From assembly GCA_050015075.1 (NCBI GenBank), contig JBEKCB010000018.1:20461-84460 (forward strand): 64,000 nucleotides of DNA, given 5' to 3'. The position numbers and the translations under genes were made by a program. The stretch comes from Candidatus Brocadiia bacterium. GTDB lineage: Bacteria; Planctomycetota; Brocadiia; CAIUPP01. The notes beneath the pieces were generated by a model, which saw nothing but the letters and a program-made list of their open reading frames with translations, had not been told where the DNA came from and did no database searches. Shown one piece after another: positions 266 through 25,667 of the stretch (the stretch's first letter is position 1; every line of letters begins with the position of its first letter).

Positions 266-1216
266 CTATCGCCAGTCCTCCGCCGGCGGCCTATCGTCCC
301 TCCGTTCAACCACGGAGAACTTGCAGATGACGGCGCCGGCGATGACCAGCCCGCAACCGAGCCACAGCGCGCGCGTCAGCGGGACGCGCAGATACAGCGA
401 GCTGATGACCGTCGAGAAGAGCGGCAGCAGGTACGAGAAGGACGCGACGAAGACCATCCGCCCGCGGCGCATGGCGATGTCCCAGAACGGATAGGCCAGG
501 CCGATCGGGAAGATGACATAGAGCGCCATTTTTACGGCGATGTCCGGGCTCCAGTGCGGGTGCTCGTGGAAAAAGCAGCGCGCGAGGAGCAGGACCAGCC
601 CGCTCGCGACCATGAACAGATTCATCGCCCCGCCGCCGGCGTCCGCGGCCCAGCGGCGGCTGAGGTTGGAATAGAGCGCCCAGGCGACCGCCGCCGCGAG
701 CGCGAGCAGATACGGCGCAGCGTTCGCGCGCAGGTCGGCCGTGAATCCCGACCAGGACAGGACCTGGTTCTGCGCACTGGCGACGAGAGCGATGCCCGCG
801 AAGGCGATCAGCACGCCGGGGACGAGGCCGATGCGCGCGCGATCGCCCAGGATCGGCATGGCGAGCAAGAGCGTCAGCACCGGCCATAGGTAGTTGATCA
901 AACCGACCTCGACGGCCTGCGCGCGGTCAGCGGCCAGCCCCACGGCCAGGAAGAAGCAGAGGACGTAGAGTACGACCAGTCCGCCGCAGCCGAACAGGTA
1001 CGCGCGCGGCAGCCGGAGCATCCGCTGGATGCGTTCCGGCCGGATGAGCAGCGGAAGACTGCTCAGCACGCCGCCGGCCAGGTAAAGCACGGCGCTCGCC
1101 GTCAGCGGTCCCAGGCATTCGACGATGTCCCGCGCGACCGCCACCGTCGTGCTCCAGAACAGCACCGCCAGGATGCCCGCGACGGTGGGCAGATGTTTGG
1201 ACGAGGAAGACTGCAT
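266..1216 (-). CDS. DMT superfamily (EamA-like) membrane transporter
   Basis: 316 aa with about 10 predicted TM helices and an EamA-like duplicated architecture; high GC3. Confidence 0.7.
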   Translation of the reverse strand: MQSSSSKHLPTVAGILAVLFWSTTVAVARDIVECLGPLTASAVLYLAGGVLSSLPLLIRPERIQRMLRLPRAYLFGCGGLVVLYVLCFFLAVGLAADRAQAVEVGLINYLWPVLTLLLAMPILGDRARIGLVPGVLIAFAGIALVASAQNQVLSWSGFTADLRANAAPYLLALAAAVAWALYSNLSRRWAADAGGGAMNLFMVASGLVLLLARCFFHEHPHWSPDIAVKMALYVIFPIGLAYPFWDIAMRRGRMVFVASFSYLLPLFSTVISSLYLRVPLTRALWLGCGLVIAGAVICKFSVVERRDDRPPAEDWR

Positions 1217-1344
1217 CCGGCGCTTTCCTTGAGGGCTGATGGAAGTTCGAAGGAAAAGACCAGGAACAAAGGCGGCATCTTACATGGACCCGGCGGCTCG
1301 GAGCAAGTGCTTCGACGCGCGCCGCCGGACGCCCTGTTCTCCGA

Positions 1345-2538
1345 TCAGATTGCCCGGAGCGCCCTGACCATCGCCAGCACATTCTCCGCCGGGACGTCCG
1401 GTTGGATATTGTGAACCTGCGTAAAGACAAATCCTCCATGCGCTCCGAAGATCGCCGCGTTTCGGCGCACTTCCCGGCCGACCTGCGCCGCGGAGGCGCG
1501 GTTCAACGTGCGCTGGGTGTCGCACCCGCCGCCCCAGAAGACGATGTCCTTGCCGAATTCGCGCTTGAGCTGCGCTGGGTCCATGCCGGCCGCCGAAATC
1601 TGCACGGGGTTGATCGCCTGCACGCCGCATTCGATCAGGTCCGGAAGAAACTCCGCGATGGCCCCGCAGGAGTGCAAAAGCAAGACGCCGTCGAAAACTT
1701 GCCTGAGATGGCCGAAGAACCGCTTCTGGTACGGCCGGATCATTTCCCGGTACGTGCTCAGAGAGATGATCGGCCCGTTCTGCGTTCCGAGATCGTCGTT
1801 GACGAGAATGACATCCAGATACGGACCGAGTGTTTTCACATAGCGATCGGCGCGGCGCATGTACGCGGCGCAGAGCGCATCGAGGAGCGCGTGGGCCAGC
1901 GCCTTCTCGGCCACGAGATCGCACATGAAATTCTCGTAACCTCGAAGCGCTTCGCCGGCGGCCAGAAGGTGGCAGGCGAGGTTGCCGACCACGGCGCGAC
2001 CGGTGGCGTGCAGGCGCCGGGCTCGGGCGGCGCGCTCTTCCCACGTTTCGTCGGAGAATCCTGGCACGTCGAAGTTCACAATGCAGGGCGCCGCGGGGTC
2101 CACCTGCGATGCGGACGTCAAGCTCCTGAGCGGCGCGTCGCACCACTCAAAATAGAATCCCTCCGCCGGCATGCGCGCCAGCAGGCTTCCGCCGTCACCG
2201 CGCACCTCGCGCGAGCCGTCCGGCAAGAACTTCTCGTTCCAAAGTCCGGGGACTTCGCACGCCGATCCATCGGGCAGGGTTGACCGCTTCCACGTTCTCG
2301 GCTCCCAATTCAGCGATACCGCGTCAATCTCCAGCGCGTCCAGGATGGCGGGTTCGATCAGGGACAATTGCTGGTACGGGTCGTAGATCCTCGGCGCGCC
2401 GCCGAGCCCCAGGGCCGCTTTCAGACGGGCATAGGCAATCCCGGTCATGCCCGAGGAGTCCGTAGCGCCGATGTCGAGGGGGATCCGGTCCGGCGCCTTG
2501 TGAGCCAGCGCCGCCTTAACGCGCTCCCGGGAATTCAT
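1345..2538 (-). CDS. uroporphyrinogen decarboxylase (URO-D) family methyltransferase (MtaA/CmuA-like methylcobamide methyltransferase)
   Basis: From the internal start MNSRERVKAALAHKAPDRIPLDIGATDSSGMTG... with a URO-D/MtaA fold signature. The upstream GTG at 2742 would overlap the mttB-family gene by 140 bp, so the internal ATG is preferred. Confidence 0.65.
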   Translation of the reverse strand: MNSRERVKAALAHKAPDRIPLDIGATDSSGMTGIAYARLKAALGLGGAPRIYDPYQQLSLIEPAILDALEIDAVSLNWEPRTWKRSTLPDGSACEVPGLWNEKFLPDGSREVRGDGGSLLARMPAEGFYFEWCDAPLRSLTSASQVDPAAPCIVNFDVPGFSDETWEERAARARRLHATGRAVVGNLACHLLAAGEALRGYENFMCDLVAEKALAHALLDALCAAYMRRADRYVKTLGPYLDVILVNDDLGTQNGPIISLSTYREMIRPYQKRFFGHLRQVFDGVLLLHSCGAIAEFLPDLIECGVQAINPVQISAAGMDPAQLKREFGKDIVFWGGGCDTQRTLNRASAAQVGREVRRNAAIFGAHGGFVFTQVHNIQPDVPAENVLAMVRALRAI

Positions 2539-2603
2539 TCTTGCGCGTGTCCAATGTCCAGTTGTGTGAAGCGTTGCGCTTTCGGCGGCGGCGCATCCGG
2601 CCT

Positions 2604-4172
2604 CTATCCGCGTCGCGCCAGCGCCTGGTCCATCGCCCGGGCTTGACCCCGCGTGAATGCTTGGGGCTGGGCCGTGGACAACACTTCTTGAGCTTTGCGG
2701 CGCGCGGCGGCGTCCACCGGCTGACCGCCGGCCGCGGACCACGCGTCATGCCGTGAGCGGTCGAAGATCTGCGGATACCACACCTCGCGCCGGAAGTGCT
2801 TCACCGTGTGCGGATGGCTCATGAAGTCGCCCTGCGGGCCGACGGCGTCAATGACGTCCAAAGCCAGGGCCTCGGCATTGATCTCCGTCCCCGCGCGATA
2901 GCGTTTGACCATGCCGATGATCTCGTCGGCCAGGACGATGCTCTCCATCGAGCAGCACAGTCCGGTCTCCAGGTATCCGACGTCGTGAATCAGGTTGCAG
3001 CCGTTCAGGGCGCTGACCAGAAGGGAAGCGGCCATCTCCGCTCCTGCCTGCGCGTCGAGTACTTTGGAATCCGTCGCGCCCGCGATGCAGAAGAAGGGCA
3101 GTTGGTAGTGATGGGCCAAGTCCGCGAAGGCGATGTTCATCATCTGAAGTTCCGGCGCTCCATAGGAGAAGATCATGGTGCGCATATCCATGATGGACGC
3201 ATCCGCCCCGAAGATGAACGGCGCGCCGGGGTTCTTCAACTGATGGATCACCAGCCCGGAGAGCGCCTCGGCGTTCGCCAGGGCGATGCAGCCGGCCATG
3301 GTCACCGGGGCCGACGCCCCCATCATCGGGCTGGCGATATAGATCATCGGCATCCGGTGCTCGGCGCAGAACAGCAGCTTGCCCGTTCCGTTCGGAGTGT
3401 GGTGCAAGGGACTGACCGGTTCGTTGTAGTGAACGTACCGCGGCCGCTCCTCCAGGTCCCGGCGCCCGCCCCCGGTTGCAATCTCGGCCAGGGACAGGAT
3501 GTCGCGCATGTCCTCCGCATCGTGTGCGGTGAACAGGACCGGTTTAGACGTGTTCCGGACCATGGCGTCGAACTGGTGGACAAAGCTCGTCAGGCGGCTG
3601 GCGTCCGATGCGATCCCCATGGACATGCAGAAATCAATGTTGGCGAGACGGTCGCAGAGGAGGGCCAGGCGGCCCACGTCCGCCTTGGTGCTGGGCCGAT
3701 GCAGGCCGGTGTCGGCGTCCAGGGCGCTGGGGCAATCGGACCCGGTGCCGTAGTAAGAGTTCCAGCCTTCGAGACGCATCGCCGGTTGGCCGGCGCGGTT
3801 ATAGATCTGAATACTCTTGGGCGCGGTCTTCAGCGCGCGCTCCACGAGAACGGCCTTCATGCGGACCCGCTCGCCCTCCACCCGCGCGCCCGCCTTCTTG
3901 AGCAGGCCCAGCGCCGCCGCATCCTGCACGGCCACGCCGGTCCGGTCCAGAATTTTCAGCGCGGCCGCGTGAAGGGTCTGAATCTGTTGCTTGCCGAACA
4001 GACTCAAGGAAATTTCCGCGTGAGTGCGAAGTTTACGTGGCGTTATCACAAACTTCCTTTCGCCAAGGGGAAAATGAGCGAGGGTTGCATCCGGCGCGGC
4101 CTTGCGCGTTGCCGGGTGTTCGCCGGCAAGGCGATTGAGGTCGGAGAGCCCATGCGTCCCGCGGCATCGCAC
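2604..4172 (-). CDS. trimethylamine/quaternary-amine methyltransferase MttB family (non-pyrrolysine type, MtgB-like)
   Basis: 522-aa ORF containing ISLSLFGKQQIQTLHAAALKILDRTGV plus MttB-family core motifs. No in-frame TAG. The true start is probably downstream of 4172 (a candidate GTG near 4049 with a GAAAGGAAG RBS). Confidence 0.65.
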   Translation of the reverse strand: MRCRGTHGLSDLNRLAGEHPATRKAAPDATLAHFPLGERKFVITPRKLRTHAEISLSLFGKQQIQTLHAAALKILDRTGVAVQDAAALGLLKKAGARVEGERVRMKAVLVERALKTAPKSIQIYNRAGQPAMRLEGWNSYYGTGSDCPSALDADTGLHRPSTKADVGRLALLCDRLANIDFCMSMGIASDASRLTSFVHQFDAMVRNTSKPVLFTAHDAEDMRDILSLAEIATGGGRRDLEERPRYVHYNEPVSPLHHTPNGTGKLLFCAEHRMPMIYIASPMMGASAPVTMAGCIALANAEALSGLVIHQLKNPGAPFIFGADASIMDMRTMIFSYGAPELQMMNIAFADLAHHYQLPFFCIAGATDSKVLDAQAGAEMAASLLVSALNGCNLIHDVGYLETGLCCSMESIVLADEIIGMVKRYRAGTEINAEALALDVIDAVGPQGDFMSHPHTVKHFRREVWYPQIFDRSRHDAWSAAGGQPVDAAARRKAQEVLSTAQPQAFTRGQARAMDQALARRG

Positions 4173-10446: not shown

Positions 10447-12045
10447 ATGCCTGAAAAACACGACATTCTTCCCGGCATGCTCAAGACCGGCGCGGGGACA
10501 TTGGCCAGCCGGATTCTGGGGCTTCTGCGCGAGGTGTTCACCACGCGCTTTTTCGGCGCCGGCCCCGCGTTCGATATGTTCGTCATCGCCTTCCGCGTGC
10601 CGAACCTCTTTCGTGCGCTCTTCGGCGAGGGCGCGTTGAACGCGTCGTTCATCCCGGTCTTCACGCGCGAGGGGCTCGATCCGGCGGGCGATGCGCGGCG
10701 GCTGCTCAACGCCGTCATGACGGCGCTCGCCGCGCTGCTGATGGGCATCACCTGCCTGGGCTGGCTGATCTGCGGCATCGCCCTGCTCTCCGGCCGCCTG
10801 CCGCCCAACGGCAAGCTGTTCTGCCTGCTGCTGATGATCCTGCTGCCGTACCTTCCGCTCATCTGCCTCACCGCGCTGCAGGGCGCCGCGCTGAACGTGA
10901 AAGGGCATTTCCTCCGGCCCGCGTTCGCGCCGACGATCATGAACATCTGCTGGATCGGCGCGATTGTCCTGCTGCGGTTTTGGCACGTCAAGGACTTGAG
11001 CCTGGGCGCCACCGCGCTCGCGGTCGGAGTGCTGATTTCGGGCGGGCTCCAGTTCGCCTATCAGGCGATGATGCTGCGCCGCTGCAAGCTCCATTTTCGG
11101 CTGGTCTGGGACCTGGCGCATCCGGGCCTGCGGCAGATCGTTCACCTGACGCTCCCGGTGGCGCTGGGAGTGGGCGTCATCCAGGTCAACACGTTCGTGG
11201 ATTCGCTCTTTGCGCAGTTCTGCGTGCGGGATGCGGGCGCCAACAGCGCGCTGTGGTATGGCAACAACCTGATGCAATTTCCGCTGGGCGTGCTGGGTAC
11301 CGCGCTGGCGACGGCGGTGCTTCCGGCGCTGGCGCACCACGAGGCCGTGGGCGACCGCAAGTCGTTCGTGGACGCCATCGGCCTGTCGCTCCGGACGGCG
11401 TTCTTCGTCTCGCTTCCCTGCGTCGCCGCCACGGTCGCGCTCAGCGCGCCGATCGTGCGGGTGCTCTATGAGGGCGGGCGGTTTACGCCTGAATCCACGG
11501 CGCGGACGGCGGCGGTCTTCCTCTGTTTCACCGCGGGCCTGTGGGCGTTCTGCGCCATCCAGGTGCTGGCGCGCGCGTTCTACGCTCAGCAGGACGTGCG
11601 CGCGCCCAGGCGGATTGCGGTCATGATGGTCGGCGCAAACTTCGTCCTGAACGCGATTTTGGTCTGGCCGATGCGCGAGGCGGGACTGGCGCTGTCGAGC
11701 AGCATCTGCGGGGTCGGGAACATGGTGCTGCTGTGGATACACCTGAGAAAGAAGATCGGTCCGATCGGCGGGCGCGCTGTGGCGGCCAGCGCGGTGAAGT
11801 CCGCCGTCGCCGCCGCGATCGCAGGGCTCGCCGGGTACGGCGCATTTTACGGAACTCTGCGAGCGGCCGGCGGGCCGGCGATGACCTCGCCGCGGGCCTG
11901 GCCTCAACTCCTGGCGCTCTCGTGCGGCCTGGCCGCCGTGTGCGCGGTCTTCCTGCTGGCGGCGTGGGCGCTGCGCGCGACGGAACTGAGCGAGTTCCTC
12001 CAGTCCCTCCGCCGGAAGAAAGACCGGGCGCCTTCGGACGGCTGA
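10447..12045 (+). CDS. murJ: lipid II flippase MurJ/MviN
   Basis: 532 aa with 14 TM helices and a MurJ N-terminal signature (LASRILGLLREV...FGAGPAFDMFVIAFRVPNLFRALFGEGALNASFIPVF). Confidence 0.85.
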   Translation: MPEKHDILPGMLKTGAGTLASRILGLLREVFTTRFFGAGPAFDMFVIAFRVPNLFRALFGEGALNASFIPVFTREGLDPAGDARRLLNAVMTALAALLMGITCLGWLICGIALLSGRLPPNGKLFCLLLMILLPYLPLICLTALQGAALNVKGHFLRPAFAPTIMNICWIGAIVLLRFWHVKDLSLGATALAVGVLISGGLQFAYQAMMLRRCKLHFRLVWDLAHPGLRQIVHLTLPVALGVGVIQVNTFVDSLFAQFCVRDAGANSALWYGNNLMQFPLGVLGTALATAVLPALAHHEAVGDRKSFVDAIGLSLRTAFFVSLPCVAATVALSAPIVRVLYEGGRFTPESTARTAAVFLCFTAGLWAFCAIQVLARAFYAQQDVRAPRRIAVMMVGANFVLNAILVWPMREAGLALSSSICGVGNMVLLWIHLRKKIGPIGGRAVAASAVKSAVAAAIAGLAGYGAFYGTLRAAGGPAMTSPRAWPQLLALSCGLAAVCAVFLLAAWALRATELSEFLQSLRRKKDRAPSDG

Positions 12046-17244: not shown

Positions 17245-17364
17245 TGCCCGCCTCTCTCCATTTCGCCCAGGATTATAGGTGCACCGCGTCCGGCCGGTCA
17301 AACGATGGACAAGACGGAAACGACGTGTTACGATCCGTCATCGTGATCATGATTGAGGCCGCAC

Positions 17365-19041
<1,677 letters not shown>

Positions 19042-19164: not shown

Positions 19165-19545
19165 ATGGGCCTGACCAATGTGACGGCCGAGGTGGCGAAT
19201 CCGTTTGACTTGAAGCGGAAAAAGATGCTGACCTTTCTTGTGGATTCCGGGGCGGTCTACTCGGTGATCCCGTCTGCGCAACTCAAGGCGCTGGGCATTG
19301 CCAGCACCGGCCAGCGGACGTTCTTTCTCGCCAACGGGCAGCCTGTCAAGCGCCGCACGGGAGAAGCGCGCATCAAACTGAACGCGGACTCGGCCACCTG
19401 CGTGGTGCTCTTCGGCGAGAAAGGCGACAGCACTCTTCTCGGTGTGACCACGCTGGAGAACCTCGGGTTGATATTCGATCCCATCCGCCAGAAACTCATG
19501 TCTCTGCCGATGCTCATAGCCGATGTGCGGAGATACTTCCGCTGA
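19165..19545 (+). CDS. retropepsin-like aspartic protease family protein
   Basis: Start MGLTNVTAEV; catalytic-motif context LVDSGAVYSVIP (D-S-G-A). Confidence 0.55.
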   Translation: MGLTNVTAEVANPFDLKRKKMLTFLVDSGAVYSVIPSAQLKALGIASTGQRTFFLANGQPVKRRTGEARIKLNADSATCVVLFGEKGDSTLLGVTTLENLGLIFDPIRQKLMSLPMLIADVRRYFR

Positions 19546-20170: not shown

Positions 20171-20248
20171 GGCAAAACGAGCATTTCCCTTTCGTACAAT
20201 TCCTGGCACAGCAACGATTAATGATTCGCCCGCACAGCTAGCGGATTA

Positions 20249-21061
20249 TTACGTCGAAGAAGGGTTAGTTTCGATTTCCGTCTCTACTATCGCATCGGGT
20301 ATTCCAACCTTATCAATCCAATCACGAAGACGTGCGGCGTTCTCAGGCGTTAGCTCATTCCAGTCCTTGAGATGAACATGTAGGACGACAGACATAGCTA
20401 CCGCGTGTTTCTGCTGAACGCACACATCACCTTTCACTTGTGTTGCGACTGCCGCCATCTGTTCAATGTTTGGAGTGGGAGTTTGCGCCGGTACTTCAAC
20501 TTCATCGAGGTTCCCCTTTGTGAGCGTACCGGCGTCATCTGCCAACACTAGCCCGGTGTACAGGATGAAATCGATGAGTCGGTCCAAAGCGGATGAATCG
20601 CCCTCGGTCGCCCCCGCCTTGATTGCTAGTGATTTCTTCATCTCGGACCTGGACAACGAAGGACGCAAAGCAAAGTTCTGAACTACGACCTGTCCATACC
20701 AGCACCGAGCTACGAGCCTACGAAGATAAGATTTCGCCTTCTCCTCATCCCACGCCGCTTCGCGAGCAAACCGAACAGCCTCTTGGCTGGGAACATAATA
20801 CCCGTACTTGGGCGATACCAGAATCTGGGACTCCGACAAGAAATTGTTGTTGGCACTAACCGTAGACTGCCCCAAACCAGTAGCGCTTGCCACATCGCTG
20901 TACTTGACCGGAGACTCTCCGCCATTCGAGGCAACGACATAACCCTTTATTACTCTGACAAGTACGTCCGCTCCAGAAAGGGGAAGCGCTTTCTCTGCTG
21001 TAAGCTTCGGCAGTTTTGTCTTTATTTGTTGCTCGACTTTTTGTTCCTCATCTTTACTCAT
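20249..21061 (-). CDS. hypothetical protein with a predicted N-terminal (winged) HTH; last gene of the low-GC island operon
   Basis: 270 aa with an HTH-like YSDVASATGLGQSTVSANNNFL. The GC is much lower than the host genome. It overlaps the upstream NTPase gene by ATGA. Confidence 0.5.
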   Translation of the reverse strand: MSKDEEQKVEQQIKTKLPKLTAEKALPLSGADVLVRVIKGYVVASNGGESPVKYSDVASATGLGQSTVSANNNFLSESQILVSPKYGYYVPSQEAVRFAREAAWDEEKAKSYLRRLVARCWYGQVVVQNFALRPSLSRSEMKKSLAIKAGATEGDSSALDRLIDFILYTGLVLADDAGTLTKGNLDEVEVPAQTPTPNIEQMAAVATQVKGDVCVQQKHAVAMSVVLHVHLKDWNELTPENAARLRDWIDKVGIPDAIVETEIETNPSST

Positions 21062-22422
21062 GACGCGCCTCCAATCTTTAGGGCCAAGGCATAAAGGTAA
21101 GGAATCTCAAACGAATCAGATTGATTGACCGCCTTCCTGTCTTTTACGGCCACAGCACCAATCCTGACAAGATCGGATATGACCAACTTGGCGTCTAGAT
21201 CAGCCTTACCAAGAGCAGCAGATAGTTGCTTCCGGTTGAAAGTCCGCGAGTTGTGCCCGCTCAACTGTTTATATGTTTGGCTGTAGTTTGGAAAAACCTG
21301 AAGGAAATCGTTCAGCTTATCCGCAGCGGTAAGATCTATTGCCTGTCGAATTGCCTCAGCGGAAATCAAACACGTCGGCTTGTTTACACCCTGGCGGTTG
21401 AAAGTTAACTGCGATTTCTGAGCCTCGATGCAGAAATTTACAAAATCGCGCGGAAGTGCATCGCCATTTCCGTCCTTGAAGCGTTCATACAGCACTTCAA
21501 ACCCGCCCGCGTAAGGCTCTTCCCAATCGAAAACTTCATCGAGCCACTTTTGGGCAACGGGATAGATGATGTCGTCATTATGCTCTGGATGTAAGACAGC
21601 GAGACGGTGGGCGAGAAGAATCCCTATGTCCTCCTTAGTCCACTTCAAAGTCAATTTCAACGCGCTGAAATGGTCTTTGTTGACATAGCCGAGTTCGTCA
21701 TAAATGTCAGACCGGAAAAACAGCTTAAACTTCAATCTCCTGAGTCGTATCAAGTCGCTGACAGCCGTCATTAGGCTGCTGAGGAGCTCGGCGATTTCAT
21801 CTTCCTTACTGCCGTTCAGCCGGACCTCGTCCAGACTGTCGAGGCAAATCCACAAGTCTGCTCCTTGCTCATCCAACCATGAACTTGCCAGATGGATAAC
21901 CTGATCGCATTCCGTCATCGCAAGGGGTATCTTCGGCGGTATCTCTGTAGTCACATACTCACCGATCCCGACCTTGAACTTCAAAGTCCTCAACGACTGC
22001 CACGGCGTAGGAACTATCCCGACCAGTCCCCAACGCACTAAGAATCGCTCGAACGTCTTTCTTGTCGTCTCGGCCAGACGGTCTTCATTGATGAGAAGCC
22101 CCGCGATGAGTGACGCGATATGAAAACGCCATAACCCAACCTTCGATGATGAAACAGCCGGATGCAAAGTGGCCCAGTGTTGTTGAAGTTGCGGCTCTTC
22201 ACCGAGCCAAAGGTTCGGTTTCTTGAAAATCGGGATCTTGTCTTCCCACTCGCGCAACATTTGGTAAATGGCGCTTTTACCGGCGCCCTTTGCTCCGAGA
22301 ACGAGGTAAATCCTATCGGAGCATGTCAAATCAAAAGCAACCGACTTATAGAAATAGTGCTTCAGATTGGTATCATGCTGCGCAGCACCGAAGCCAAAAT
22401 CAATCTTTTCGAGTGCGTTCAT
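21058..22422 (-). CDS. P-loop NTPase with a NACHT-like Walker B motif (STAND-like ATPase), hypothetical
   Basis: 454 aa. Walker A LVLGAKGAGKSAIYQ at about residue 45; Walker B LWICLDSLDEV (hhhhD[GAS]hDE) at about residue 195. Low GC. ATGA overlaps with both neighbouring genes. Confidence 0.6.
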   Translation of the reverse strand: MNALEKIDFGFGAAQHDTNLKHYFYKSVAFDLTCSDRIYLVLGAKGAGKSAIYQMLREWEDKIPIFKKPNLWLGEEPQLQQHWATLHPAVSSSKVGLWRFHIASLIAGLLINEDRLAETTRKTFERFLVRWGLVGIVPTPWQSLRTLKFKVGIGEYVTTEIPPKIPLAMTECDQVIHLASSWLDEQGADLWICLDSLDEVRLNGSKEDEIAELLSSLMTAVSDLIRLRRLKFKLFFRSDIYDELGYVNKDHFSALKLTLKWTKEDIGILLAHRLAVLHPEHNDDIIYPVAQKWLDEVFDWEEPYAGGFEVLYERFKDGNGDALPRDFVNFCIEAQKSQLTFNRQGVNKPTCLISAEAIRQAIDLTAADKLNDFLQVFPNYSQTYKQLSGHNSRTFNRKQLSAALGKADLDAKLVISDLVRIGAVAVKDRKAVNQSDSFEIPYLYALALKIGGAS

Positions 22423-22634
22423 TGATGTTCAAGGCCATCCGCAGGGTAAACGCTTCTGACAAGACGTCCACGTAATACGTTGACCGTTCGCATCCGTTGC
22501 CTTGGAGTATACCAACGTGAGGCGTTTCGCGCCAGCACGCTGTGAGACCCTTTAGCCTCTCGTTTAACGGACCCGCCGACGCGAAGGAGCACAGCGCGAA
22601 CGTGACGTGTCTTGGCGGACGGCCAATCGCTCAT
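22419..22634 (-). CDS. hicA: HicA-like mRNA interferase toxin (putative)
   Basis: 71 aa, basic, with a GSH motif (KREAKGSHSVLAR). Translationally coupled downstream of the HicB-like gene. The assignment is tentative. Confidence 0.4.
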   Translation of the reverse strand: MSDWPSAKTRHVRAVLLRVGGSVKREAKGSHSVLARNASRWYTPRQRMRTVNVLRGRLVRSVYPADGLEHQ

Positions 22635-22831
22635 ACCGGCATCGCGAAAAGTTCGTCCAGTTCCGGAATCGCTTCACCGTGCTCCAGGCGGTCAGCGATG
22701 ACACGCAGAGCCAATGCCTCGGCTTTGCAAACCGCCTCTTTCCGGGTCTTGCCATACGCCATAACTCCCGGCAGATCCGGCACTTCGGCGATCCAGCGGC
22801 CATCCGTTTCGCGCTCGATTTCAATCTTCAT
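22631..22831 (-). CDS. hicB: HicB-like antitoxin (UPF0150 family)
   Basis: MKIEIERETDGRWIAEVPDLPGVMAYGKTRKEAVCKAEALALRVIADRLEHGE, typical of HicB/UPF0150. Confidence 0.6.
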   Translation of the reverse strand: MKIEIERETDGRWIAEVPDLPGVMAYGKTRKEAVCKAEALALRVIADRLEHGEAIPELDELFAMPV

Positions 22832-22890
22832 CCAGGTAGCCTCCGTCGCATACGATATCACACGCCTCCGAACTGAGCAAGTTTTTCCCG

Positions 22891-25227
22891 TCACTCTTGC
22901 GTGTAAATCACAATCCGGTCATGGATGAGCAGCACGATGTCGGGCTTGCCGCCGGTGACGGCGCCGATGGCGAACTCGCGCGGTTCCGACGAGGCCGCCG
23001 GCGCCGGACCCATGCGGCCGCCGACGAACGCCTTGGCTTCGAAGACCGGCCAGGCGAGCACGCGCTCGATGCGCGGCTCTTCTTTCCGCCACGTCAGCAG
23101 TTCCATCAACTGCTTCGTCCCCTCGGTGACGATGATCTGCGGCCGGCCGTCGCCGCGGAGGTCGCCGACCTCGACGTTCTCCAGCCGCCCGTTGCGCACC
23201 GGCGATTCGTACGAGGCGATCGAGCGCAGCGCCACGCGCGGCAGGCCCGGGCGCAGGATGTGGAAATCGTCCTGCCCGGCCAGGATGACGGCCGGCTTGC
23301 CGCTTCCATCCAGGTCCGCGACGTGCAGCCGCTCGAGGTTGACCGCGCCGGTCTGGAGTTTGTCCGCGACTTCGTACACGCCGGTCTTGTTCGCCCGGAG
23401 CACGGTCAGGCAATGGTTCGCCGCGTCCGCGAGGAGGATGTCCGTGGTCGAACTTCCGTTGAGCCGGACAGCGGAGGCCGCGACGATCTGGCTGGTCGGC
23501 GCCACGCCGTTGAACTGCTCGACGATCTCGATCCGGTCCTTGTCGTCGAGCCGCAGCGCGCGCGCGAAGCTCTTCGCGGCGACGAGGATCGTCGGCTTGC
23601 CGTCACCCTTGAGGTCGGCGATCGAGACGGCCCGCCGCGTGACGCCCTGCACGAGCCCCTTGCCGTAATCCGGCCCGCGCGAGACGTCAACGAATTGCGC
23701 GTCGGCCGTCTGCTTGAAGATGCGCATCTCCTGGTACGGCGTGAAGAGCAGGATGTCCGGCCGGCCGTCCTGGTTCGCGTCGGCCACGAGCAGGCCGTCG
23801 GGATCGGTGCGCGCGTCCTCGATCGGGATGCGCAGGGACTCGACGAAGGTCGCGCCCGGCCCGATGGTCAGCACGCGAATGGACTTGTCGCGTGCCTGGG
23901 AGGAGACGTAGAGGATCTCGCGTTTGCCGTCGGCGAAGAGGTCGGCGACGCACATGCAGGTCGGCTTGCCGACGATCGGCAGCGACCGCGGGAAGGTCAG
24001 GCGGCCCTGCGCGTCGAGGCGCATCAGGCCCAGCATCGGTTCATCGGGGCTGAGGACGAGCACCGCCGGGGCGCCGTCCACTTCGAGCACGGCGACGTCC
24101 GTCACTCCCTGCAGGCACGGGAAGGCCGCCTGCCGGTCCCACTGGCCGGACTGGTTCTGGCGGAAGAGTTCGATCTCGGCCGCGTCGGGGTCAGCGACGA
24201 CGATGTCCATCCGTCTCGGATCGGTCAACGGGCCGAAAGCGAGCGGGTGCGCGCGCCGCGAGCCGGTCCCGCGCAGCGCGTAACGCTCGAACGGCCCGTC
24301 GAGGAGCACGCCCGGATCCGCCGGCTCCGTGCCGACCTTGTAAACCACCAGCCGGCCCTGTGACCGCTCAATCGCGACCAGTTCGGTGCAGCCGTCCTTG
24401 TCGAGGTCGCCGAGGGCTACGCTGCTCATCGGCGGCGCCTTGCAGCGCACTTCGGGGCCGAGCCGCCCTTCGGCGTTCTGGAACCGGAAGCAGAACGGCG
24501 CGGCCTCGTCGCTGCAGAAGTAGAGCAGGTCCTTCCGGCCGTTGCCGTCGAAATCGGCGATGGCGATGCCGACGGCGCCCTCGGGCAGGCCCGATTCCTT
24601 GATCGGCGCTTCGAGCTGGCCGGCGGCGTTCTGGTGGAAGAAGTAGGTGCCGTCCGTGCCGAGGAGGACCAGGTCGTTCCGGCCGCTCTTGCGCAGGTCG
24701 CCGATCGCCAGGGCGTTCATCTGCGTGGAGCCGTCGGCGATGTCAAACGTCCGGCGCGGTCCCCATTGCCCGTTCTTGTCCTGGTAGACCACGACGAGTT
24801 CGCGCGGATCGCCGTAGTACGCCATGTCCGTCCGGCCGTCGCCGTTGAGGTCGCCAAGCTCCAGGCTGTAGACGTGCTTCTCGGTCAGATAGGGCCGGCT
24901 GTCGAACTGCGCGTCGTTGGGAACCTCGTTCGGCTCCGCGTCCGCCGGCTTCGCCGCCGGGGCCTTCGCAGCGCCGGCCGTTTTCGGGCGCTGCAGCAGG
25001 CACTCGATCCGCGCGCGCGCGTTGTTCACCACGACGATGTCGGTCAGCCCGTCGCCGTTGACGTCGGCGAGGCGCAGGTTGCTCGTGTCCCAGTCGAGCT
25101 TGTACATCTCCATACCGGAGAAGCCGAAAGATTCCGTCGCCGGCTTCGTTTCGCCGGACGCCGGCAATGAGAGCACGCCCAGGCATAACGCGGCGAAGAC
25201 CAGACGAATCACCGGTGGATTTCGCAT
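22891..25227 (-). CDS. secreted FG-GAP / VCBS repeat protein (integrin-alpha-like beta-propeller repeats)
   Basis: Signal peptide MRNPPVIRLVFAALCLGVLSLPASG, followed by many (N/D)xDGxxD(I/L)(V/L) FG-GAP repeats. Confidence 0.75.
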   Translation of the reverse strand: MRNPPVIRLVFAALCLGVLSLPASGETKPATESFGFSGMEMYKLDWDTSNLRLADVNGDGLTDIVVVNNARARIECLLQRPKTAGAAKAPAAKPADAEPNEVPNDAQFDSRPYLTEKHVYSLELGDLNGDGRTDMAYYGDPRELVVVYQDKNGQWGPRRTFDIADGSTQMNALAIGDLRKSGRNDLVLLGTDGTYFFHQNAAGQLEAPIKESGLPEGAVGIAIADFDGNGRKDLLYFCSDEAAPFCFRFQNAEGRLGPEVRCKAPPMSSVALGDLDKDGCTELVAIERSQGRLVVYKVGTEPADPGVLLDGPFERYALRGTGSRRAHPLAFGPLTDPRRMDIVVADPDAAEIELFRQNQSGQWDRQAAFPCLQGVTDVAVLEVDGAPAVLVLSPDEPMLGLMRLDAQGRLTFPRSLPIVGKPTCMCVADLFADGKREILYVSSQARDKSIRVLTIGPGATFVESLRIPIEDARTDPDGLLVADANQDGRPDILLFTPYQEMRIFKQTADAQFVDVSRGPDYGKGLVQGVTRRAVSIADLKGDGKPTILVAAKSFARALRLDDKDRIEIVEQFNGVAPTSQIVAASAVRLNGSSTTDILLADAANHCLTVLRANKTGVYEVADKLQTGAVNLERLHVADLDGSGKPAVILAGQDDFHILRPGLPRVALRSIASYESPVRNGRLENVEVGDLRGDGRPQIIVTEGTKQLMELLTWRKEEPRIERVLAWPVFEAKAFVGGRMGPAPAASSEPREFAIGAVTGGKPDIVLLIHDRIVIYTQE

Positions 25228-25667
25228 CGTTCCGCGCGCCTCCTCTATCACGAACTCAGGACGCCTGGATTCCCGCTTTCGCGGCAATGACGTAAGGTGT
25301 TTTCAGCACAGTGTTTGCTGCAAATTGGATTCGTTTTTTCAAATCGCATTTTCAGCTTCATATCCTTGCCTGCCAATAACTTACGGCATCTCGAGGCTTG
25401 GATTATACAATAAGTTTTCTGATATGTCAAGGGCCGCGCTGCTGTTTTAATGGTGCCATGCATACAGATTATAATCATAACAGATTATAGCTACGGTGCT
25501 TACGGCTTATCTCTCCGATAACAACGTTTCCGTTTTTCCGGTTTTCAGCCCTTCGGCCGTGAGAGGAGCCGAACGGGTCAGCGCCGAACGGCTGAAAACA
25601 ACCGACCAAGCATATTGCAGTCTAGCGGTTTTGCAAGAGGCGTTCAATGGGTGGCGGCCATCAATCC

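Follow-up and report, generated by a model that had tools for sequence, protein, structure and literature searches.

Gene content and composition of the island

A low-GC island located between the tag gene and an FG-GAP protein gene was examined in a 64,000-nucleotide (nt) stretch of DNA from Candidatus Brocadiia bacterium, which is called the window below. The island carries four open reading frames (ORFs) on the minus strand, which an earlier reading, made from the sequence only, had taken for a single functional unit and a candidate defence module. The analysis showed that the conserved unit consists of two genes, not four, encoding a P-loop ATPase and a partner protein with two predicted winged-helix domains. 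The main features of the locus are as follows.

20171-22890: low-GC island between tag and the FG-GAP gene; GC 0.513, the lowest 2.7-kb stretch of the 64 kb
22831-22631, minus strand: ORF1, 66 amino acids (aa), HicB-like
22634-22419, minus strand: ORF2, 71 codons, HicA-like
22422-21058, minus strand: ORF3, P-loop ATPase of 454 aa
21061-20249, minus strand: ORF4, partner protein of 270 aa
20256-22432, minus strand: shared mobile cassette of ATPase and partner genes, with DNA homology to loci that have unrelated flanks

The coordinates of the four ORFs were confirmed, as were the three ATGA start/stop overlaps that join them (22634-22631, 22422-22419, and 21061-21058, as read from the sequence) and the identity of the flanking genes, tag (Adenine_glyco) and the FG-GAP gene. 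The low GC content held up as well. The island has 51.3% GC compared to 66.4% in the rest of the window, which is the minimum among all 2.7-kb windows and about 4 standard deviations under their mean (mean 0.656, standard deviation 0.033). Likewise, the GC content at third codon positions (GC3) ranges from 0.51 to 0.64 in the four island ORFs, while tag, the FG-GAP gene, the sigma-54 activator gene, and miaB have values of 0.79-0.93. The locus recurs in several metagenome assemblies, and NCBI holds an identical ATPase protein annotated from a 'Candidatus Brocadiia' metagenome-assembled genome (Planctomycetota). In a related species (locus L033) the whole island, with 82% nucleotide identity, again lies between tag and the FG-GAP gene. 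In view of the strong deviation of GC and GC3, and of the recurrence of the cassette in unrelated contexts elsewhere, the horizontal acquisition proposed in the sequence-only reading is supported. At the island ends, no direct or inverted repeats, tRNA, integrase, or Rfam family was found, and promoter- or terminator-like sites were not above chance.

The conserved unit is a pair of genes

Altogether 156 homologues of ORF4 were found, none of them named. When 185,579 GTDB species were scanned with one genome per species, ORF4 homologues were present in only 16, all of them metagenome-assembled genomes and mostly from Verrucomicrobiota and Planctomycetota. Inspection of the homologue neighbourhoods, which the sequence-only reading had itself recommended, placed an ATPase gene immediately upstream of the ORF4 homologue in all of these genomes (16/16), while HicB/HicA accompanied the pair in none of the 16. 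The surroundings of the pair vary among the metagenomic loci, where it is located after thiC, after a ribosomal protein operon, beside maf, or beside an Eco57I-type methyltransferase gene.

The limits of the unit were visible at the DNA level. In blastn, the window aligned with locus L009 from 22432 to 20256 with 78.7% identity and with locus L035 from 22423 to 20256 with 77.4% identity, the flanks being unrelated in both cases. The homology thus extends from the ATPase start codon to the stop codon of the partner gene. In 12/12 loci, the GC content of the pair was 7-20 points under that of its flanks. In the other loci, the junction of the two genes is an overlap of 4-14 nt or a gap of 3 nt. 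Comparison with the related species (L033) gave ratios of nonsynonymous to synonymous substitution rates (dN/dS) of 0.13 (ATPase) and 0.15 (partner), indicating purifying selection on both. The ATPase subfamily of the window, with members of about 455 aa, always occurs with a tandem winged-helix partner. A diverged clade (Terriglobia and others) has also retained the pair, with ATPases 36-37% and partners about 25-30% identical to those of the window; these ATPases match the NF047389-type family, described below, by a hidden Markov model (HMM) built in this analysis. Therefore, we conclude that the conserved unit is the ATPase and partner gene pair, and that this pair is compositionally foreign, horizontally moving, tightly coupled, and under purifying selection. 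The single four-gene unit of the sequence-only reading did not survive the comparison, as all other loci examined carry the ATPase and partner alone.

Some copies of the pair look disrupted (L022 8634-10588, L024 3012-5007, and L035 7362-8067), with the ATPase in two tblastn segments or the partner called as two pieces of 55 and 178 aa. These are either pseudogenes or assembly frameshifts. In one species of the Terriglobia clade, a divergent gene of the restriction-endonuclease-like Uma2 family (L058 2921-3466) is located 164 nt upstream of the ATPase gene.

The ATPase

ORF3 is a full-length match to the NCBIfam family NF047389, 'P-loop ATPase, Sll1717 family', with residues 9-447 aligned to positions 1-453 of the 454-position profile at 151.9 bits (E-value 2.9e-44; curated cut-off 75 bits). 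This confirms the P-loop NTPase seen earlier and shows that its family is not a new one. The Sll1717 family is uncharacterised, its name carries no function, and a literature search for the name 'Sll1717' returned no papers. The Walker A (GAKGAGKS, residues 43-50) and Walker B (LDSLDE, residues 194-199) motifs are intact and invariant or nearly so in 38 homologues.

22273-22296, minus strand: Walker A, GAKGAGKS, residues 43-50; G43, K45, G46, A47, G48, K49, and S50 invariant in the 38 homologues
21826-21855, minus strand: Walker B strand, LWICLDSLDE, residues 190-199; W191, L194, D195, L197, and D198 invariant, E199 nearly so

The AlphaFold model of ORF3 (predicted local distance difference test score, pLDDT, 85.7) comprises a nucleotide-binding domain, a helical lid, a helical bundle, and a C-terminal winged helix, which together take up all 454 aa; a strand at residues 190-194 is placed at Walker B. 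The C-terminal winged helix is basic, with an isoelectric point (pI) of 9.8. In the structure comparison, the closest folds to the model were those of archaeal ATPases, CED-4, BrxC, Cdc6/ORC, TnsC, Avs5, and RdrA. No sensor repeats (TPR, LRR, or WD40) and no effector domain were found in ORF3 by the Pfam scan or in the model. Against Pfam, ORF3 had no NACHT, NB-ARC, or ATPase_2 match at an E-value of 1 or below, and only AAA_22 and PrkA appeared, with E-values of about 0.06. Its relatives gave sub-threshold Pfam matches to ORC-CDC6-like, ATPase_2, and AAA_16. The description NACHT-like given in the sequence-only reading can be kept for the fold, which resembles STAND, ORC/Cdc6, and archaeal ATPases and includes the LDSLDE motif, but it does not stand as a family assignment, as no NACHT Pfam model matched.

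As judged from the model, ORF3 is a minimal P-loop ATPase with a predicted STAND/ORC-Cdc6-like fold. It would share the nucleotide-binding domain, helical domain, and winged helix with the STAND NTPases (NACHT, NB-ARC, and Avs) and with the ORC/Cdc6 and archaeal ATPases (PF01637). It differs from the STAND proteins in having neither a C-terminal repeat sensor nor an N-terminal effector, and its length of 454 aa is much below that of Avs or NLR proteins.

The partner protein

No match was found for ORF4 in Pfam, PADLOC, NCBIfam, PHROGs, or PDB sequences, and its family is unnamed. The helix-turn-helix (HTH) predicted earlier was borne out by the structural model, in which two winged-helix domains are seen and pLDDT exceeds 90 over residues 30-180. 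The elements of the protein are listed below, with helices (H) and strands (E) given by residue.

20786-20974, minus strand: winged-helix domain 1, residues 30-92; H31-44, H54-61, H65-77, E81-85, E88-91
20516-20701, minus strand: winged-helix domain 2, residues 121-182; H121-132, E135-137, H138-149, H153-169, E172-174, E179-182
20297-20395, minus strand: C-terminal strand-helix element, residues 223-255; pLDDT 64-80

Domain 1 is the best-conserved part of the partner, with a VSxNNxFL helix and a SPKYGYYVP wing, and residues N72, F74, L75, S78, S83, G87, Y89, and P91 are invariant in it. The protein has a lysine-rich N-terminal tail, and a disordered linker (residues 191-221) precedes the C-terminal element. 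In this element, H228, H230, A242, and W248 are invariant within the close subfamily, while distant clades keep only the alternating hydrophobic strand and helix pattern. ORF4 as a whole has an acidic pI of 5.4, with near-neutral winged-helix domains. Since the recognition helix is also poor in basic residues, it does not follow that the partner binds DNA. We conclude from the model that ORF4 is a tandem winged-helix protein of an unnamed family.

HicB and the HicA-like ORF

ORF1 matched the Pfam family HicB_lk_antitox (PF15919) over residues 3-61 with an E-value of 3.7e-6, its 27.5 bits lying just above the cut-off of 27, and it also matched the PHROG HicB family phrog_497 (2.1e-7). The HicB-like assignment of the sequence-only reading is thereby upheld, if at a borderline score. 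The 66 aa of ORF1 represent the HicB_lk domain alone, without the C-terminal DNA-binding domain (ribbon-helix-helix or HTH). The gene is intact and under very strong constraint, with a dN/dS of 0.01 against L033.

For ORF2, the HicA-like assignment was correct for the N-terminal half and failed for a complete toxin. The match to HicA_toxin (PF07927) covered residues 10-40 on profile positions 2-31 of 58 and reached 12.8 bits (E-value 0.13) against a cut-off of 27; the orthologue in L033 gave an E-value of 7e-4. The N-terminal half has kept the HicA helix-strand region and the GSH motif, and codons 1-36 are constrained (dN/dS 0.13, with 17/26 changes at third positions). Codons 37-71, on the other hand, are unconstrained, with a dN/dS of 1.29 and 13, 10, and 8 changes at the three codon positions, and no alternative frame over these codons showed constraint or codon-position bias in the comparison with L033. 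A frameshifted but intact hicA was considered and rejected: stitching the N-terminal half to the alternative frame that is better conserved over the C-terminal half, in both the window and L033, raised no Pfam HicA score, and the stitched C-terminal half matched nothing. As stitching recovered no HicA match and the C-terminal half is unconstrained, we consider the HicA-like ORF a degenerate remnant. ORF2 is also missing from the gene calls of the source assemblies.

The ORF2 frame is nevertheless open and ATGA-coupled in both species. It may serve translational coupling, in which the ATGA overlap would pass ribosomes on to the ATPase start codon. Compared to the HicAB type II toxin-antitoxin systems, the likeness lies in the HicB-like domain of ORF1, at the Pfam threshold, and in the N-terminal HicA region and GSH motif of ORF2; the differences are the sub-threshold HicA, the missing DNA-binding domain of HicB, and the gene order, hicB being followed by hicA. 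HicB and the HicA-like ORF are found beside the pair in the lineage of the window only, in its own contigs and in L033/L034. They are neighbours of the conserved system, brought beside it in one lineage, and not part of it.

Comparison with known defence systems

The four island proteins were searched with the defence models of PADLOC-DB v2 and NCBIfam. No system was assigned by PADLOC-DB v2 and no NCBIfam defence system claimed the pair, in agreement with the earlier statement that no established defence family fits. The sole PADLOC match was that of ORF3 to PDC-M28C, at 41 bits (E-value 2.7e-11), with residues 171-293 aligned to positions 153-273 of the 480-position profile. All Sll1717 relatives tested matched this model partially as well (42-72 bits). 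PDC-M28 is itself only a candidate system, and its likeness to the pair consists of this partial match of component C to ORF3. ORF1, ORF2, ORF4, and the diverged partner had no PADLOC match, so no other PDC-M28 component is present; a literature search for 'PDC-M28' found no papers.

DS-41 ('AAA2') is a single protein of 502 aa for which protection of E. coli from several phages has been demonstrated; the same work lists it as a remote homologue of the STAND protein Avs1B (DefensePredictor, PMC13092281). Like ORF3, it is a P-loop NTPase. The two proteins are similar in size, in Walker A (of the form GxxGAGKS), and in Walker B (of the form hhhDxLDE). ORF3 scored 37.7 bits with the DS-41 equivalog model (NCBIfam NF053860, DS41_1), against a cut-off of 370, and all Sll1717 members matched the model weakly (26-60 bits). 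When the profile of the ATPase family was aligned by hhalign to DS-41 (399/502 aa of the published sequence), a probability of 24% was obtained over 77 columns, in the Walker B region only. DS-41 also works as one gene, in contrast to the system of the window with its obligate second gene. Membership of the ATPase in either DS-41 or PDC-M28C was rejected, the scores being far under the cut-off or the model coverage partial. Judged by sequence, the ATPase is a remote cousin of the validated defence NTPase DS-41 and not a member of its family.

The resemblance to BREX, with BrxC and BrxA as counterparts of ATPase and partner, is a predicted likeness of fold only. At the sequence level no similarity exists, and the ATPase is only about a third of the size of BrxC. 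In the Foldseek search with the partner, BrxA fell outside the best 50 matches and no global match had an E-value below 1e-3. None of PglX, PglZ, BrxB, and BrxL is encoded in the island, and neither PglX nor PglZ was found in the related loci.

PADLOC was also run on 149 neighbouring ORFs from 15 pair loci. It returned single generic matches (UvrD-like, IscS-like, MTase_II, and SoFic) and PDC-S05 in two ORFs. The sequence-only reading had placed the genes in a defence island beside a DNA-repair gene, which these scattered matches among mostly housekeeping genes do not bear out. Toxin-antitoxin genes are frequent near the pair, namely HicB in the window, ParE, and SocA_Panacea, and an Eco57I-type methyltransferase gene is found as well.

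Distant relatives of the two proteins

Distant Sll1717 ATPases of 483-513 aa, with 21-23% identity to ORF3, stand alone without a partner gene. Those of prophages match NF047389 by NCBIfam. On a viral contig from IMG/VR (L032 9947-12746), such an ATPase gene immediately precedes that of a Mu-like protease I, in a moron-like position. Two others are on plasmids (L036 4345-8366 and L037 1-7632): in Aeromicrobium the ATPase gene adjoins an AbiEi-domain gene, and in Nostoc it lies among DUF87(HerA)/NurA, DUF3696, and HNH genes. Neither ATPase nor partner had a match among the cultured phage genomes of INPHARED, and IMG/VR and PLSDB contained only distant, partner-less ATPases and no partner. A phage or plasmid origin of the pair was rejected on these grounds.

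When 1.84 billion representative proteins were searched with a profile of the partner family, 680 clusters (at 50% identity) were retrieved with E-values of 1e-3 or below, 250 of them at 1e-10 or below. Nearly all have 245-300 aa and the same layout. Loci were examined for two distant clades whose members share 17-25% identity with the window protein, and a Sll1717-like ATPase was present in none of these loci. Instead, a convergent gene for an IS1595-family transposase was found about 200 nt downstream of the partner-like gene in 8/12 loci with enough flank (L038 at 1108-3627, L040, L041, L043, L044, L045, L048, and L049). These transposases of about 320 aa contain DDE_Tnp_IS1595 (PF12762) and a zinc ribbon (PF12760), with E-values of 1e-35 to 1e-38. 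In L038, a 36-nt imperfect inverted repeat encloses the partner-like gene and the transposase gene, as expected for an insertion sequence with a passenger gene; no such repeats were found around the two genes in the high-GC loci. By tblastn, no IS1595 transposase was detected in the window or in any locus carrying the pair. The tandem winged-helix family is thus paired either with a Sll1717 ATPase or with an IS1595 transposase. Two further settings of distant family members were seen: in L047 (2166-6710) the gene lies between those of a MutH-like nuclease and a C5 cytosine methylase, resembling a restriction-modification locus, and in L051 a DDE_Tnp_1 transposase gene is located downstream.

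Proposed function and alternative explanations

Our best guess is that the pair is a conflict module, providing either defence against phages and mobile elements or addiction, and we consider this about equally likely to be right or wrong. The two-gene cassette would have landed just downstream of a HicB gene, resident or co-acquired, and its decayed HicA remnant. ATPase and partner would form a complex in which the ATPase may act as a nucleotide-dependent switch or oligomeriser, probably on DNA via its basic winged helix, while the acidic partner may be an adaptor, sensor, or regulator. The complex would then act in genetic conflict, against phages or mobile elements or as an addiction-type module. 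Several observations are suggestive of such a role: the rare and patchy distribution (16/185,579 species), the partial similarity to PDC-M28C (E-value 2.7e-11) and DS-41, the toxin-antitoxin neighbours of the pair, and the occurrence of stand-alone relatives in a Mu-like prophage and near AbiEi or HerA/NurA genes on plasmids.

Other observations weigh against it. The PDC-M28C match spans only about 120 of the 480 profile positions, from Walker B to the sensor region, and the likeness to DS-41 is remote (37.7 bits against 370; 24% in hhalign). An effector domain was recognised in neither protein, and the acidic partner has a recognition helix short of basic residues. There is no consistent defence context among the 149 neighbouring ORFs of the 15 loci, and many copies of the pair lie between housekeeping genes (the ribosomal operon and proS, thiC, and maf). 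Finally, the distant relatives of the partner go with IS1595 transposases, which brings in transposon biology as an alternative.

The conflict reading can be taken further. In a two-component conflict system, a minimal STAND/ORC-like NTPase might have outsourced the sensing or effector role to the tandem winged-helix protein, whose family would have been recruited independently by IS1595 transposons. We offer this extension tentatively and regard it as rather unlikely in its full form. If it were true, the winged-helix family would be a general module recognising DNA or mobile elements and serving both defence and transposition machinery.

It is doubtful that the pair is a toxin-antitoxin or addiction module without an anti-phage role, in which the ATPase would be a growth-arresting toxin and the winged-helix protein its antitoxin and autorepressor. 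Two small, tightly coupled genes of low GC, patchily distributed and inserted between housekeeping genes, would suit such a module, as would the adjoining toxin-antitoxin genes and the copies with split matches that look disrupted (L022, L024, and L035). However, the ATPase resembles no known toxin family, a faint Zeta_toxin match (E-value 0.09) being confined to the P-loop, and its distant homologues lack any partner, as would not be expected of a toxin. In addition, the partner protein is acidic and has no clear DNA-binding surface.

The association of distant partner relatives with IS1595 makes it worthwhile to take seriously an accessory role in mobile DNA, with an ATPase of the TnsC/MuB/IstB or ORC type for DNA loading or target selection, an adaptor, and a cassette that would be a remnant or stand-alone derivative of a transposon or replicon. 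We nevertheless hold this to be quite improbable. No transposase, integrase, replication or partition gene, or terminal repeat was found at the cassette, either in the window or at any pair locus, and tblastn with the IS1595 transposases themselves retrieved none at the pair loci. In addition, the clades linked to IS1595 are without the ATPase, and the structural likeness concerns the AAA+/STAND fold in general and is not specific.

A single four-gene defence system, with HicB and HicA functionally fused to the NTPase and its winged-helix partner, is very unlikely, and as a conserved system it is largely refuted. The ATGA overlaps do link all four ORFs, the arrangement is kept in the related species (L033/L034), and the low dN/dS of HicB (0.01) would be in keeping with a shared function. 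Yet HicB/HicA are absent from the 16 genome loci and from the other metagenomic pair loci, the shared DNA homology ends at the ATPase start codon, and the HicA-like ORF is under the Pfam threshold with an unconstrained C-terminal half. HicB and the HicA-like ORF also differ from the pair in GC content (0.57-0.58 compared to 0.49-0.51 in the ATPase and partner genes).

An ordinary cellular regulator, that is, a housekeeping or niche-specific transcription factor pair under ATPase control, is hardly credible, as the winged-helix domains typical of transcription factors and the purifying selection on both genes are set against a pair present in only 16/185,579 species representatives, always compositionally foreign, without conserved neighbouring genes, and with about 78% nucleotide identity to loci with unrelated flanks.

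As far as the libraries and literature searched show, the partner family and its pairing with the ATPase are undescribed, while the ATPase family is catalogued and uncharacterised. Metagenomes commonly contain candidate two-gene modules of this kind. If the pair works as a defence or addiction module, it would represent a STAND/AAA+-type system of very small size, found in Planctomycetota, Verrucomicrobiota, and Acidobacteriota, phyla from which, to our knowledge, almost no immunity has been studied experimentally. It would also provide a first function for the tandem winged-helix family, with its approximately 680 clusters, and for the Sll1717 ATPases, which are carried by prophages and plasmids as well. 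The sharing of the winged-helix family between the ATPase pair and IS1595 transposons offers a testable link between defence-like and transposon modules. The apparent HicBA fusion, by comparison, is a juxtaposition peculiar to one lineage, involves a decayed toxin gene, and represents no new architecture.

Sequences around the island

The stop codon of the FG-GAP gene is separated from the island genes by a gap of 59 nt (22831-22890, minus strand). This gap contains a GGAGG ribosome-binding site 8 nt ahead of the hicB ATG and a weak promoter-like site (TTGCTC, 17 nt, TGaTATCGT) that is under the scan threshold. Further upstream, a perfect sigma-70 consensus promoter (TTGACA, 17 nt, TATAAT) is located at 25402-25430 on the minus strand, ahead of the FG-GAP gene and within a low-GC intergenic region (25000-25600, about 49-53% GC). 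It could drive the FG-GAP gene and, by read-through, the island.

Two differences from the related species were seen nearby. In L033, a PhdYeFM/PIN toxin-antitoxin pair (11049-11746) is inserted between the sigma-54 activator gene and a DUF4147/MOFRL gene, and its counterpart in the window is a short intergenic gap only, near 17300-17365. In the interval between the sigma-54 activator gene and tag, the window has a retropepsin-like gene (gag-asp_proteas) of 126 aa at 19165-19545 on the plus strand, with 60% GC, the position of which is occupied by an acetyltransferase gene in L033 (8761-9258). As this position differs between the two species, it represents a second variable spot beside the island.

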